Shown here: piece by piece, positions 10,962 through 16,264 of the stretch | How the letters are laid out: each line of letters opens with the position of its first letter | How positions within the stretch are numbered: position 1 is the first letter of the stretch | NCBI GenBank assembly: GCA_964403235.1 | Contig: CAYOGX010000001.1 | Coordinates: 1 to 24,191, forward strand | Direction of reading: 5' to 3' | Source: an uncultured Planctomycetales bacterium | Lineage (GTDB): Bacteria; Planctomycetota; Phycisphaerae; UBA1845; JAFGLZ01 | DNA: 24,191 nt | Notes under the pieces: model-generated | The model's input: only the letters and a program-made list of their open reading frames with translations | Databases searched by the model: none | What the model was told of the DNA's origin: nothing | Made by a program: the position numbers and the translations under genes

Positions 10962-11681
10962 TCATCGGGGCGTGGGGCGCGATCGACGCGACGCCGCGTG
11001 ATCGCGTTTACGTTTGGTGCCCGGCTCGTCAACCTCGAGCACGGCGCGGACGGGCGTTCCCATCGCGCCGCGGATCTTCAGCGGAAACGCGAACAGCCGC
11101 ACCCGGATGAAGTCGTGCCGGTACACGTTGCAGACCGGCGCGAGCAGATACGGGACGCTCGCCCAAAACTCAGGCCACGGGAACGTGGGCTCCGGAACGT
11201 AGTCGAAGCGGGGAAAGTCGGCGGCGAGACATCGGATGCGACGCGAGAACAGCCACAACGCAGCGCCTCGACTGATATACGGGCTCGCCTCGATGAAGTA
11301 CTTGGGGTCGTGCCAGTGCGCGTCCCATCCGGTGGCGATGATGACGGCGTCGTCAGGCTCGATCGCGACGCCGGCCTCCTCGAGCTCCTCGAGCCGGACG
11401 GGGTCTCCCGCTTCCTTCTCGTCGACGCGCAGGATGACGGCGTTCATGACGAACTCGTCGACGGGACACGCGCTCACGGGCGTGCCCGATCGGTCGACGT
11501 GCGCCTTGGTCTCGATGTACGTCCCGCTCTGCCCGCCGATGTCGAACCGCTGGCAGTAGACCTTGTGATCCGCGGGCAGCTCGGGCGGATGGGGACACTC
11601 CGTGATGGTCGCGCCGGGATAGACCGACGAGTACGACCACATGCCGTTCTCGATCCAGCCTGTGATGTCGACGTATCGCAT
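10962..11681 (-). CDS. Cyclase family (kynurenine formamidase/KynB-like fold) protein with non-canonical metal motif
   Basis: YVDITGWIENGM N-terminus, QSGTYIETKAH at the HxGTHxDxPxH position, DAVIIATGW, AADFPRFD, and FAFPLKIRGAMGTPVRAV C-terminal motif. Confidence 0.85.
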   Translation of the reverse strand: MRYVDITGWIENGMWSYSSVYPGATITECPHPPELPADHKVYCQRFDIGGQSGTYIETKAHVDRSGTPVSACPVDEFVMNAVILRVDEKEAGDPVRLEELEEAGVAIEPDDAVIIATGWDAHWHDPKYFIEASPYISRGAALWLFSRRIRCLAADFPRFDYVPEPTFPWPEFWASVPYLLAPVCNVYRHDFIRVRLFAFPLKIRGAMGTPVRAVLEVDEPGTKRKRDHAASRRSRPTPR

Positions 11682-11686
11682 CGGAC

Positions 11687-13123
11687 CTACATCGCGTCCA
11701 ACAGGGCCTCGAACCGGGCGGCGACGTTCCGCAGGTCGCCGGTCCGTGCGTTGGGTGTGGTCAGCACCATTGGACCACCGAAGCTGGCGCAGCGGAGGAT
11801 GGAGATCATCTCCTTGACCTCGGCGTTGCCGTGGGCCAGCGGCTGTACGACACCGTCGTTGCAGGCGTCCTCGACGTCGAGCTGGTCGACGAATCGCCGG
11901 AGCTTCTGTTTGTAGCTGTAAAGGAACGGTGCCTCGCCGGCCCGCGCGAAGTTCGCGCCGTTGAACGTGAACCCCACGTCGGCGCCGGTCTCACGCAGCG
12001 CCAGCAGCATCCGCGACGCCATCAGGCTGCCCTGGACGCCGTTGTACAGGGAAAGCCTCAACCCGCGCTCTGACGCGAGGGTCGCGTGCTCCTGTGCTTC
12101 GGCCGACAGGGGCAGCACGATCCGGTCGACCTGGTTGTCGACGGCAGCGTCCATGAATCGGGCCACCGACTCGGGAACCGACGCGCACCGCAATGCGGTC
12201 ACGTGGCATTCGCCCTTGCGGAGGGCCTGCACCGTCGTCCGCAGGTCGTCGGCGGCGAGCCTGTGGACGGGTCGGCCCTGGACGAGGTCCAGCTCGATGT
12301 GGCCGACGCCGCTTGCCCGGAGGTTCTCAATCATCTCCGGCACGTACCGGCCCGCCAGGCCGCTGGCCGCGACTACCGTGAACGCCTCGCGGCCGAATCG
12401 CTCGCGCCGGAGCGCCGCGCGCTGGGCGACGCAATCGGCGCAGTTGGGATTCTCGCACAACACGAAGGCGGGATCGGCGCGGCCCGCCTCCAGACAGACG
12501 TCGATCAGGTCTTGGCTCTTCATCAGCCGGACAACCGAGCTGCCGATCCGCCCAACCCGCAGCACGCCCTTCTCGCGCAACAGCGGGTCCAGGCCCACGA
12601 AGTCCCGGTGCGGGCCGGGGAACCGTCGGATCGTCCGGGTGACCTCGCCCTCGTCGGTCATGAAGGTCTTGGTCCGGTCGGTCAAGTAGGGCGGTTGGAG
12701 CATTTCCTCCGCCGTGTGTAGCGTCGTGCTGCGGTCCTGGTCCACGCCGAGTAGACAGACGTACCCGCCGCGTTCGGCGATGCGCATGTAGGGCGTGTCT
12801 TCGGCGTGTGCGGTTTCGGCCTTCCAGTGGTCTTTGCAGAGCGCCTCGGCGGCCGCGCCGATGGCGGCCACGCTGGCCAGAGGATGGACGCTCCGCACCG
12901 ACCGCGGGTCGTCGCGGACCGCCTCCGTGATGACGCCCAGCGCGCCGAACGTCGGCACGACCAACGTTCCCCGTTCGCCCAGCACGGACAGGAACGCGTC
13001 GACGACGGTCCGCGCGCCGCCCTCGACGAAGCCAAGACTGGACAGCGAGCTGTGGAGCAACACGACGTCGCCTTCGCGGAGCCCCAGGTCGCGCAGTCCT
13101 CGTTCGATCTGATCCCGCGTCAT
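11687..13123 (-). CDS. AAC(3)/Antibiotic_NAT-family N-acetyltransferase fused to a C-terminal xylose-isomerase-like (AP endonuclease 2) TIM barrel, 478 aa
   Basis: ATG at 13123 with GAGGG upstream. GDVVLLHSSLSSLG, GTLVVPTF, RSVHPLASVAAIG and LLGVDQDRSTTLHTAEE are AAC(3) motifs. After residue ~243 come GVGHIELD...HVTAL...VGFTFNGANF...PLAHGNAEVKEMISIL, which fit an AP_endonuc_2-type barrel. Confidence 0.85.
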   Translation of the reverse strand: MTRDQIERGLRDLGLREGDVVLLHSSLSSLGFVEGGARTVVDAFLSVLGERGTLVVPTFGALGVITEAVRDDPRSVRSVHPLASVAAIGAAAEALCKDHWKAETAHAEDTPYMRIAERGGYVCLLGVDQDRSTTLHTAEEMLQPPYLTDRTKTFMTDEGEVTRTIRRFPGPHRDFVGLDPLLREKGVLRVGRIGSSVVRLMKSQDLIDVCLEAGRADPAFVLCENPNCADCVAQRAALRRERFGREAFTVVAASGLAGRYVPEMIENLRASGVGHIELDLVQGRPVHRLAADDLRTTVQALRKGECHVTALRCASVPESVARFMDAAVDNQVDRIVLPLSAEAQEHATLASERGLRLSLYNGVQGSLMASRMLLALRETGADVGFTFNGANFARAGEAPFLYSYKQKLRRFVDQLDVEDACNDGVVQPLAHGNAEVKEMISILRCASFGGPMVLTTPNARTGDLRNVAARFEALLDAM

Positions 13124-13393: not shown

Positions 13394-14719
13394 ATGTCGC
13401 AAAAGGCGGTCGGCGAGAATCGCGCTTCGACGGGGCCATCGGGCCTCCCTCGTCAGCGTTGGATCAAGGTCGTCGTCGCGGTATCGCTCGTGGGCTTCTG
13501 CGCCGTGAACACCCGCAATTTCGTCAAGAAGGTGAACGCCGGGAAGTCCACGCTGAAGATCTGGTTGCCGTGTGCGGCCGAGATCGGGCGCGACGAGCTT
13601 CTGTACACCCACCACCGGAACTACATCTATCCGCCCTGGTACTTGGTCGTGATCCGCCCGTTGACGTACGTGTCGAGAACGGCGGCGGCCATCATCTGGC
13701 AGATGATGAAGTACGCGGCGGTGGGGGCGATCTTCTGGTTGGTTTGGGACCTGCTGTCGCGGGACGGGCCGCTGCCGACGTGGGCGAAGCTCGGTTCGGT
13801 CGTCATGAGCGCGCGGTTCATCCTCAACGATCTGGGGCACGGCAACGTCAACCTGTTTATCTGTCTGCTGGTGGTTTTGGCGGTGTGGCTGTTGGCGCGG
13901 GGGCGGTTGATTGCCTGTGGGGTTGCGGTGGCGGTAGCCGCGTGCATCAAGATCACGCCCGCCTTGTGGGCCGTGTACCTGTTGTACAAGCGGCAGTGGC
14001 GAGCGCTGGTGGGGGTCGTGATCGGTGTCGTGATCTGTCTGGAGCTCGTACCGCTCATGCTCCTGTCGCCGGCGATGAACCACGCGTTGCTGCGGCGCTG
14101 GTACGCGCACGTGATCACTCCTTACGTGTCGAAGGGACAGGTCTACTCGACCCGAATCAACCAGTCGATGGCGGGGGTGACGAATCGCCTGTTGGGTCGG
14201 AGCGAATGGGCGCCGCGCGACGAGCCGATCGCGCTGGTCGATCTGGACGATGAGACCCTCAAGTGGGTCCAGCGCGGGATTGGGTTCGCCGTGATCGCGA
14301 TGTTGGCGTGGTTCTGTCGAGGGGCATTGCCCGAGCCGGACCGGTTGGCGTTGGCGGTCGAGTGGTCGCTGGTGGCCGCAACGACGCTCGTCCTGTCGGG
14401 GTACACGTGGACGGGTCATTTCTGTCTGCTCATCCTCGCCCACGTGGCGGTGTTGGCGTATCTGGCGAGGCGTGGGGAGCAACGTATCGACCGGCAGGTC
14501 CTGGTCCTGACGATCATTGCCTTGGCGCTGTGCTCGTTGACCAGCGATCTGATCACGCCTGCGGGCCGGCGATGGGCGGCCGCGGTCGGTCTGATGCTCT
14601 ACGGTGTACTGGCGCTGGCGGCCGCGCTGGTGTTGATCCGCGAGCGCCGTCGTCCCTCGGCAGTGGCGCGTGACAGCACCCATTCGCGTTCGGGACGCGG
14701 GGGCTCGGAAGGGCGTTGA
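13394..14719 (+). CDS. Glycosyltransferase family 87 / DUF2029 multi-pass membrane protein; start could be 13376
   Basis: YIYPPWYLVVIRPL, GNVNLFICLLVVL, AACIKITPALW and NQSMAG motifs, with many hydrophobic helices. The ORF-track extension to 12806 overlaps the opposite-strand gene and is not credible. Confidence 0.85.
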   Translation: MSQKAVGENRASTGPSGLPRQRWIKVVVAVSLVGFCAVNTRNFVKKVNAGKSTLKIWLPCAAEIGRDELLYTHHRNYIYPPWYLVVIRPLTYVSRTAAAIIWQMMKYAAVGAIFWLVWDLLSRDGPLPTWAKLGSVVMSARFILNDLGHGNVNLFICLLVVLAVWLLARGRLIACGVAVAVAACIKITPALWAVYLLYKRQWRALVGVVIGVVICLELVPLMLLSPAMNHALLRRWYAHVITPYVSKGQVYSTRINQSMAGVTNRLLGRSEWAPRDEPIALVDLDDETLKWVQRGIGFAVIAMLAWFCRGALPEPDRLALAVEWSLVAATTLVLSGYTWTGHFCLLILAHVAVLAYLARRGEQRIDRQVLVLTIIALALCSLTSDLITPAGRRWAAAVGLMLYGVLALAAALVLIRERRRPSAVARDSTHSRSGRGGSEGR

Positions 14720-14726
14720 CGGCGGG

Positions 14727-15224
14727 CTACGTCGGCCTTCGGGGATCATGGTTGGCATGCTCGTCCAGCCACTCTTGTAGCATGTCGGCCTTGGCGGTCC
14801 TGCCGAGCCTGCGATAGGCCTGGCATTCGTATTCCAGCGACAGAACGGGGACGGCCAATCCATCGAGGTCGACGAAACGGCGGTGCTCGGACACGTCGAC
14901 GCGGTCTTCCCATTTCCCATCCGGGAGGCGTTTCTGAATCGCCCCCATGATTTCGACGCTCACGCCATCGATGCACAACTCGCCGAAATGGGAACGGATC
15001 GTCTCGGTGGACGAGAACTGGACCTTTCGAACGACGTGATCCGAGAAGCAGCGCTCGATCTCGTACGCGCCCGGTTCGTCGGTTTGGATGTCGATGTCAT
15101 GGACCGCCACTTCAACGCCCTGGAGCGCCTGGCCGAGGCTGCCAGTAACCGCCCAGGTCGTCTCAGTGCCGCTCAGGTGGGAACAGATGCATCCAACAAC
15201 GTCAATGAAGCGCGGGTCGATCAT
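14727..15224 (-). CDS. Small nucleotidyltransferase-superfamily protein (Pol-beta-like GS + DxD), 165 aa
   Basis: WAVTGSLGQALQG...HDIDIQTD (hG[GS] motif plus DxD) and a third acidic residue in VSVEIMG. The start is taken at MIDPRF. Confidence 0.75.
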   Translation of the reverse strand: MIDPRFIDVVGCICSHLSGTETTWAVTGSLGQALQGVEVAVHDIDIQTDEPGAYEIERCFSDHVVRKVQFSSTETIRSHFGELCIDGVSVEIMGAIQKRLPDGKWEDRVDVSEHRRFVDLDGLAVPVLSLEYECQAYRRLGRTAKADMLQEWLDEHANHDPRRPT

Positions 15225-15256
15225 CTCGATCCCCGACGACGGCACGACAGGCGGCG

Positions 15257-16264
15257 TCACTTGTCCGGGGCCGCGACGGGGGCGGGTCCGTCCGGGAAGT
15301 CGCGTCGCCATCGCTTGCGAAGCTCGTTGAGCGTTCCGGCGAACCAATAGATCTTTCCGCGGACGGCCCGCTTGGCGTTCGGCGGTATGGGCCCGACGTT
15401 TACGATGCTGTGCAGGCAGTCGGCCGGGTGATGGTCACTCACGTGGGACGTTCGCTGCCAGTAGATGCCGCAGACCCAGGTCCGCTCCCTGTTCGTTCGC
15501 GTGACCAGGCCGTTGTCGATCTGCTCGAGCATGCGGGCCTTGTAGGGTCCGACGGTGAGCATCGCTGCCAGGTCCCCACCGCTGCGCTCGGTGTCGACGC
15601 GGACGCCAAGGGGCGTCCGCGCGCCGACGGGCGATGACGTGGCCGGCAGGGCCTGCCACGTGCGTTTTCGAAGCACGTATGTGAGGCTCGTCTTGGCGGG
15701 CTTGTCCTTTTCGTGTCGCCGCCACAGATCGTATTCGCTGAAGGCGGGTGTCTGGGCGATGGTCCGCCGCCAGGCGGCGTTCGTCGTGCCGCTCATTCGG
15801 AAGCACTGCTGGATGCCGTAGTAAGCATTGAGCCCGGCCTGGTCGGTCTGAACGACGAGGAGCAGATCGATGCCGTCAGCCACGGGCGCCATGTAGAACG
15901 TCCATTGCTGCGGCACCCAGCCCTTGTCATCCACGCGAAGCTCGTTCTTCAGCACGCCCGGTCGCTTGCCGAAACGCCGCTCGAGCTCGGCCATCTCGGC
16001 GGGATCGATCCCTGCCCGCTCATTGTCGTCGGGCACCTGGCCGTGCACGATCGGCGTGTGTTCGTGGAATCGGTACCCGATCCGGTTGTCGGGATGGCGC
16101 CGGTTGGTGAACGTGGCGAAGCCGTTGCCCCTGGCGAGCTTGGCCATGATCGGTGAGTCAGCGGACATGTTGGCACCCGATGCCGATCCCCACGCGCACG
16201 TCGTCAGCAGCGCAACCAGCGGGACGGTGCGGTGGCGAAGGGGACGTTCATTGTGTTCGCCCAT
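15257..16264 (-). CDS. Uncharacterised exported protein, 335 aa
   Basis: GAGG RBS, signal-like RTVPLVALLTTCAWGSASGA, GC3-biased codons and a beta-rich composition. No family recognised with confidence. Confidence 0.7.
   Translation of the reverse strand: MGEHNERPLRHRTVPLVALLTTCAWGSASGANMSADSPIMAKLARGNGFATFTNRRHPDNRIGYRFHEHTPIVHGQVPDDNERAGIDPAEMAELERRFGKRPGVLKNELRVDDKGWVPQQWTFYMAPVADGIDLLLVVQTDQAGLNAYYGIQQCFRMSGTTNAAWRRTIAQTPAFSEYDLWRRHEKDKPAKTSLTYVLRKRTWQALPATSSPVGARTPLGVRVDTERSGGDLAAMLTVGPYKARMLEQIDNGLVTRTNRERTWVCGIYWQRTSHVSDHHPADCLHSIVNVGPIPPNAKRAVRGKIYWFAGTLNELRKRWRRDFPDGPAPVAAPDK

Follow-up and report, generated by a model that had tools for sequence, protein, structure and literature searches.

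What role is left to a sugar-isomerase barrel that is joined to an acetyltransferase and has lost the residues expected to hold its metal? This question is raised by a gene of an uncultured Planctomycetales bacterium, on the minus strand of a 24,191-nucleotide stretch of contig CAYOGX010000001.1 that was analyzed as a whole and is referred to below as the window. The gene encodes a 478-residue protein in which a domain with the fold of aminoglycoside 3-N-acetyltransferases, AAC(3), is followed by a divergent xylose-isomerase-like (β/α)8 barrel, or TIM (triosephosphate isomerase) barrel. Both folds are already known, and the protein is already listed in databases as an AAC(3)-family member. What is new is the recognition of a hidden TIM barrel in a clade of proteins of about 480 residues, the documentation of ligand loss across the family, the relocation of a carboxylate within the former metal site, and a conserved partner gene with a cyclase fold. 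We favor, with about an even chance of being right as a whole, a reading in which the protein would be a conserved two-domain cytoplasmic enzyme whose barrel serves, without metal, as a substrate-recognition module for an N-acetyltransferase of amino sugars or aminocyclitols.

Domain organization and fold of the C-terminal half

The coding sequence begins with the ATG at 13123 and ends, stop codon included, at 11687 (Table 1). A longer frame, opening with GTG and reaching up to 13228, was rejected, as 31 full-length homologs start at the MTRDQIE position; end-to-end alignment to the 478-residue product was obtained with 32 full-length homologs. The TIM-barrel domain is not a chance frame, because it is conserved in at least 179 database proteins and in the genomes of 219 species. 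The full-length AlphaFold2 model has a mean predicted local distance difference test score (pLDDT) of 93.3 and a predicted template modeling score (pTM) of 0.86, the latter suggesting that the two modeled domains share a fixed interface. A first-pass annotation of the window had described an AAC(3) fused to a C-terminal sugar-isomerase-like TIM barrel, an architecture confirmed by the PF02522 match of the N-terminal half and by the fold of the barrel. It had also remarked that such a fusion was not known among characterized AAC(3) enzymes, and none was found by a literature search, which likewise yielded no paper combining PF02522 with PF01261, or Antibiotic_NAT with 'xylose isomerase-like'.

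Foldseek results for the full-length model were filled with AAC(3) chains, and the barrel was therefore modeled separately. The resulting AlphaFold2 model (49-sequence alignment, pLDDT 97.8) consists of eight strands alternating with eight helices. Its top Foldseek matches in the PDB were xylose-isomerase-domain proteins, the Art22 isomerase, UlaE and 3p6l. Superposition with VIA-align gave Z-scores of 22.9 for 3p6l (root-mean-square deviation, r.m.s.d., of 3.1 Å over 233 residues), 21.0 for UlaE (3cqj), 19.1 for the D-allulose 3-epimerase 7dz4 and 18.8 for IolE (3cny); over the solved members, Z ranged from 18 to 22.9, with r.m.s.ds of 2.4–3.4 Å over 214–233 residues. The top 50 chains were all xylose-isomerase-like, whether the search was seeded by Foldseek or run independently over 48,161 representative chains. 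The TIM-barrel identity proposed earlier, which a fold comparison could have contradicted, was upheld by Foldseek and by superposition, IolE 3cny and 7dz4 included.

The relationship is not detected by standard domain models. Pfam and NCBIfam gave no match to residues 239–478 even at E ≤ 10. In the PDB, the full-length family profile matched only AAC(3) sequences, with no solved relative for the barrel, and the barrel-only profile produced weak matches only, to 3p6l (E = 0.002) and 5tnv (E = 0.005). The barrel lies below the Pfam gathering score of PF01261, and its homology to this family is shown indirectly, by these weak matches, by profile–profile alignment and by relatives linked through phmmer. 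The barrel profile was aligned by hhalign with canonical PF01261 proteins (13 proteins, 12 from the same genome and one from a related locus) with a probability of 98.9% and an E-value of 1.4e-17 over 237 columns. An exhaustive phmmer search against 1.84 billion representatives returned 131 relatives of the barrel in total; the distant ones carry PF01261 and are either PF02522+PF01261 fusions of about 490–530 residues (E down to 2e-22), termed type B below, or standalone proteins of about 245 residues. The nearest clusters in the ESM Atlas are unnamed proteins of about 240 residues, with PF01261 assigned to 13% of one cluster.

Members of the PF01261 superfamily, such as the ketose 3-epimerases, UlaE, IolE/IolI and the uncharacterized Parabacteroides proteins 3p6l and 3lmz, share with the barrel the (β/α)8 fold, 'G..VEL' on strand 2, an Asn after strand 5, the Asp of 'HxKD' and a GxGxxD-like loop (here GNAEVKE). 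The barrel differs from them in being shorter (240 residues), in the replacement of the metal quartet, in its fusion to an acetyltransferase and in an invariant set specific to its clade (D279, R312, E397 and D416).

Loss of the canonical metal site

The metal quartet of the D-allulose 3-epimerase of A. tumefaciens is Glu150/Asp183/His209/Glu244, and in canonical epimerases the Glu at position 1 is both a metal ligand and the catalytic base (PMC7008614). The expected Glu, Asp, His and Glu were seen in the canonical comparison proteins. This quartet, carried by strands 5–8, is not found in the barrel, where the hhalign alignment places Tyr, Asn, Asp and Thr at the four positions (Table 1, with residue counts over 181 non-redundant family members). 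Positions 1 and 4 were independently supported by the HMMER alignment to 3p6l. The earlier claim that all four metal ligands are replaced holds in this gene and, by profile–profile alignment, across the 181 members. The motifs on which it had been based were found where they had been quoted: LSLYN at residues 357–361 (12041–12055), with the codon of its Tyr correctly placed, FTFNGAN at 385–391, QLDVED at 414–419 and MVLTT at 452–456. Because all four ligands are replaced, the barrel is unable to hold the canonical metal.

Table 1. Features of the fusion gene and of its partner, in window coordinates
Feature	Position	Strand	Basis and remarks
Whole gene, AAC(3)-like acetyltransferase + TIM barrel fusion	11687..13123	-	478 residues plus stop; open reading frame and translation
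Antibiotic_NAT/AAC(3) fold domain, residues 1–238	12410..13123	-	PF02522, PDB sequence matches, Foldseek
Divergent xylose-isomerase-like (β/α)8 barrel, residues 239–478	11690..12409	-	AlphaFold2, VIA-align, hhalign
Canonical ligand 1 (Glu), replaced by Tyr360	12044..12046	-	hhalign; family F73, Y53, V16, A13, C11, S7, never Glu
Canonical ligand 2 (Asp), replaced by Asn388	11960..11962	-	hhalign; family N103, S59, H10, D3
Canonical ligand 3 (His), replaced by Asp416	11876..11878	-	hhalign; family D168, E7
Canonical ligand 4 (Glu), replaced by Thr455	11759..11761	-	hhalign; family G102, T44, A16, S13
PTFGALGV, site of the missing insert 1 of the AAC(3) minor subdomain	12932..12955	-	alignment to BA2930 and AAC(3)-IVa
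TTLHTAE (T133–E139), catalytic Thr/His/Glu motif	12707..12727	-	H136 and E139 invariant in 181 sequences
His172, candidate fourth ligand of C3H1 zinc site	12608..12610	-	invariant in 181; aligns with HCC stretch of AAC(3)-IVa
CENPNCADC (C223, C228, C231), Cys cluster at domain junction	12431..12457	-	all three Cys invariant
Partner gene, cyclase/KynB fold	10962..11681	-	PF04199, E 2.8e-23; 5 nucleotides after the fusion stop

A conserved pocket with a relocated carboxylate

Conservation reaches 97% or more at twenty positions of the barrel: L256, G258, G272, E277, D279, R312, P338, N361, F392, G396, E397, P399, F400, D419, G432, E435, E438, S441, F448 and G450. When family conservation is set against the secondary structure of the model, 14 of the 20 are found at C-terminal strand ends or in β–α loops, the face on which the active sites of TIM barrels lie. 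This catalytic face is under strong selection, and E277, D279, R312, N361, E397, D416 and D419 are predicted to form an acidic polar pocket on it.

The old metal site was compared in a hidden Markov model alignment of 281 domains. A carboxylate is present at position 1 only in 60 of them and at position 3 only in 204; one domain has both and 16 have neither, 7 of the latter with Asp at position 2. In 264 of the 281 domains, ligand 1 or ligand 3 is acidic, but not both. Asp416 is kept in 93% of the 181 members, in a clade without the position-1 Glu.

A tree of 118 domains was calculated from an alignment stripped of the trait columns, with the standalone clade as root. The standalone proteins (pattern E-N/D-R-x) are followed by a paraphyletic grade of type-B fusions (E-N-Y-K/R) and then by the clade of the protein studied here, a single branch (Shimodaira–Hasegawa-like approximate likelihood ratio test, 97) with the pattern hydrophobic-N/S-D-G/T. 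This order implies that two of the canonical ligands, the His and the Glu of position 4, had already disappeared when the fusion arose. The tree places a single shift of the carboxylate, from strand 5 to strand 7, at the base of the clade, after which it was conserved. As it gives a single origin, use of the swap as repeated convergent evidence was rejected.

Type-B fusions (for example P0199, P0186 and P0194) have the same two-domain architecture and Cys cluster as the studied protein, and both they and the standalone relatives (P0236, P0244, P0249) share with it the signature GNAE(V/I)KE(L/M)(I/V)S(I/A)L and the PF pair after strand 6. These relatives differ in keeping the Glu at ligand 1, in being recognized by Pfam as PF01261 (E down to 2e-22), and in their residue at position 3 (Tyr or Arg) and, often, a Lys or Arg at position 4. 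Arg occupies the canonical His position, with the position-1 Glu kept, in the standalone P0236, P0244, P0249, P0218 and P0234; Lys/Arg occupies the fourth-ligand position, also with the position-1 Glu, in the type-B P0186, P0194 and P0203. These basic residues at positions 3 and 4 may provide a side-chain cation that replaces the metal. The studied clade has no such Arg or Lys, which leaves its pocket net acidic.

The acetyltransferase domain

The N-terminal half matches PF02522 (Antibiotic_NAT) with an E-value of 1.3e-45 and 156 bits, against a cut-off of 25. Sequence matches in the PDB were 3e4f and 6mn3, and Foldseek matched 6mn5 (E = 5e-20, 30% identity, template modeling score of 0.84 normalized to the target). 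Like AAC(3)-IVa (6mn3–6mn5), the domain has the TxΦHΦAE motif, the role of which in the Antibiotic_NAT family has been described (PMC8956665), and a Cys/His cluster aligned with a zinc site. In AAC(3)-IVa, this C3H1 site lies in a C-terminal extension (insert 4) and has been called unique to that enzyme (PMC8956665). The CxxC of this extension has its counterpart in C228 and C231, and H172, C223, C228 and C231 probably form, judging from their alignment and invariance, a C3H1 zinc site at the domain junction.

Unlike AAC(3)-IVa, the protein continues after this putative zinc site with the 240-residue TIM barrel, and insert 1 is missing. PTF is directly followed by GALGV, and the alignment has nothing to match residues 71–107 of BA2930 (37 residues) or about 10 residues of AAC(3)-IVa. 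Insert 1, part of the minor subdomain, contributes residues that are central to aminoglycoside contact, among them Trp63 and Asp67 of AAC(3)-IVa (PMC8956665). In resistance enzymes, its hairpin makes up most of the aminoglycoside pocket. The NCBIfam models of AAC(3) resistance enzymes (NF033082, NF033081 and others) gave at best 118.2 bits, all below their cut-offs of 270–675 (AAC_3, 118.2 against 270; AAC_3_IV, 117 against 420). From these sequence features, the acetyltransferase half seems capable of catalysis, although it does not seem equipped for aminoglycosides in the usual manner.

Genomic context

Neighbors were counted at the best 80 loci out of the 219 species with relatives, by clustering of open reading frames with Pfam and NCBIfam labels and by tblastn. 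A cyclase-fold (PF04199) protein of about 218 residues is encoded next to the fusion on the same strand at 62 of the 80 loci, upstream at 55 and downstream at 7. The seven loci with a downstream partner belong to the closest relatives of the studied gene, which has the same arrangement. A recurrent operon, next to a divergent ROK gene, comprises a creatininase-family gene, the cyclase-fold gene, in some cases a Gfo/Idh/MocA gene, a DegT aminotransferase gene and the fusion; creatininase is present at 18 of the 80 loci, DegT at 16, ROK at 16 and Gfo/Idh/MocA at 14.

The metal motif of the partner is degenerate. It reads GGQSGTYIETKAH in the window and GTYIDFPGH in the consensus of the 62 partners, with only the last His invariant; a canonical PF04199 paralog in the same genome has HVGQYGTHVDPPGH at this place. 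As the barrel has lost its ligands too, canonical metal ligands are gone from both proteins of this two-gene module.

On the other side of the fusion gene, the window contains a divergent GT87 glycosyltransferase gene (13406–14719, plus strand) and, beyond it, a 206-residue open reading frame (14730–15347, minus strand) that matches PF10706, an aminoglycoside 2''-adenylyltransferase-like family (E = 1.7e-26), 1.6 kb from the AAC(3)-like gene. By tblastn, the GT87, HAD and ANT(2'')-like genes and the genes of exported proteins were conserved partners at none of the 80 loci. At two loci inspected for type-B and other Planctomycetota contexts, L103 and L104, the neighbors were uninformative. Directly upstream of the fusion at three Lentisphaeria loci (L045, 7119–7973; L046, from 7074; L067, from 4828), a canonical PF01261 gene stands in the usual place of the partner.

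Distribution of the family

The 219 species with a relative were found by scanning one genome per species; the fusion is fixed and the hosts are mostly uncultured bacteria. The best 80 loci come from Planctomycetota, Lentisphaerota/Victivallales, Kiritimatiellota, Verrucomicrobiota, Hydrogenedentota, Latescibacterota, Gemmatimonadota and Acidobacteriota. In a sample of 401 Planctomycetota genomes, a TIM fusion was present in only about four. P0119 and P0069 were considered as standalone close homologs and rejected, since they start inside the last acetyltransferase strands and are truncated gene calls, as were all the close 'standalone' matches inspected. One family member, in a metagenome-assembled genome of an uncultured Phycisphaerales (L076, 8001–9436), has an in-frame stop in its tblastn match, possibly due to pseudogenization or a sequencing error. 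AAC(3)-like domains of Planctomycetota also occur in open frames of about 900–1100 residues (G304:C187:3573-4328, G289:C22:35876-36631, G016:C49:23117-23860, G179:C189, G268:C100 and G009:C145), hinting at other fusions of the AAC(3)-like fold; these may also be accidental long frames in high-GC DNA.

Possible functions of the barrel

In the favored reading, the N-terminal domain would be an acetyl-CoA-dependent N-acetyltransferase, nearest to AAC(3)-IV, with its His136/Glu139 dyad intact. Without metal, the barrel would bind a substrate that bears an amine, recognizing its sugar or cyclitol moiety, while the carboxylates of the pocket may hold the substrate ammonium at the former place of the metal. 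The barrel would present this substrate to the acetyltransferase site, standing in for the missing minor subdomain. Judging from the operon context, the substrate might be an amino sugar or aminocyclitol produced or processed by the Gfo/Idh/MocA dehydrogenase, the DegT aminotransferase and the cyclase-fold and creatininase-fold partners. A more detailed version, rather improbable in its entirety, may be put forward: the pocket would have exchanged the metal cation for the substrate ammonium, with Asp416 together with E277, D279, E397 and D419 anchoring a (di)amino sugar or aminocyclitol during acetylation, and the protein would belong, with its cyclase-fold partner, to an undescribed pathway (dehydrogenase, DegT transaminase, acetyltransferase) of the Planctomycetota–Verrucomicrobiota–Chlamydiota (PVC) group and allied bacteria.

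Several points weigh against metal-free recognition of an amino sugar. The relocation of the carboxylate is a single evolutionary event and provides unreplicated evidence. The N, S or H at position 2 could form a new metal site with the Asp at position 3, D419 and E397. Only the cyclase-fold neighbor is widespread, the DegT, Gfo, creatininase and ROK genes being found at 14–18 of the 80 loci, mostly in Lentisphaerota, and these genes are absent from the window that carries the studied gene.

The barrel could still be an enzyme, making the protein bifunctional, with isomerization, epimerization, dehydration or hydrolysis of the same sugar-like substrate as the second activity. This is possible, although we find it clearly less probable than binding alone. 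Catalysis would proceed either at a remodeled metal site (D416, D419, E397, N361 and the N/S/H at 388) or by metal-independent acid–base chemistry with the relocated carboxylate as the base. Such an activity would fit the fact that the catalytic face and one carboxylate of the old site are strongly conserved, as well as the dual role of the position-1 Glu in canonical epimerases (PMC7008614) and its retention in the sister clades. The structural neighbors of the barrel include enzymes that act on 3-keto sugars, which the Gfo/Idh/MocA operon partners could make. However, position 1 varies freely between F, Y, V, A, C and S in this clade, position 2 carries N, S or H and position 4 a Gly, Thr, Ala or Ser; of the two glutamates that act in epimerase catalysis, just one has a counterpart. 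We know of no metal-free catalytic member of the xylose-isomerase-like superfamily.

The first-pass annotation had proposed a non-catalytic sugar-binding or oligomerization domain. The loss of the canonical metal site, on which this proposal rested, stands, whereas mere oligomerization fits poorly with the conserved catalytic face and Asp416. Xylose-isomerase-like barrels often oligomerize, all the canonical ligands are lost, and conservation is lower in the barrel than in the acetyltransferase half (mean frequency of the top residue of 0.57 against 0.72), so that a pure scaffold devoid of a ligand pocket was considered; we hold it to be quite unlikely. Polar or charged side chains make up the invariant set, and they lie at the C-terminal strand ends and β–α loops, not on the helices that would form interfaces, and Asp416 persisted after the position-1 Glu was lost. 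Because the catalytic face is conserved and the carboxylate was relocated, the barrel is unlikely to be a mere oligomerization domain; these features point to a working pocket, for binding or for metal-independent chemistry, rather than to a scaffold. Least probable of all, with very little in our estimate to be said for it, is a true aminoglycoside-resistance AAC(3) with an accessory domain. The PF02522 match, the intact catalytic motif, AAC(3)-IVa as the best structural match and the proximity of the ANT(2'')-like gene would be in keeping with resistance, but that gene is not a conserved neighbor and the hosts are uncultured environmental or gut bacteria of the PVC group. It is argued that the protein is not a resistance determinant because the insert-1 hairpin with its key aminoglycoside contacts is deleted, the NCBIfam scores are sub-threshold and the operons resemble those of sugar metabolism.

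Implications

Databases label the protein 'AAC(3) family N-acetyltransferase' or 'aminoglycoside 3-N-acetyltransferase', and surveys of resistance genes could miscount it as a resistance determinant. The family also offers a natural series in the dismantling and reuse of a metal site, from E-D-H-E to the standalone E-N/D-R-x, the fused E-N-Y-K/R and the fused hydrophobic-N/S-D-G/T, with one carboxylate kept in nearly every member. As the partner gene is conserved, the substrate of the fusion protein, once solved, would annotate a whole operon type in poorly studied phyla.

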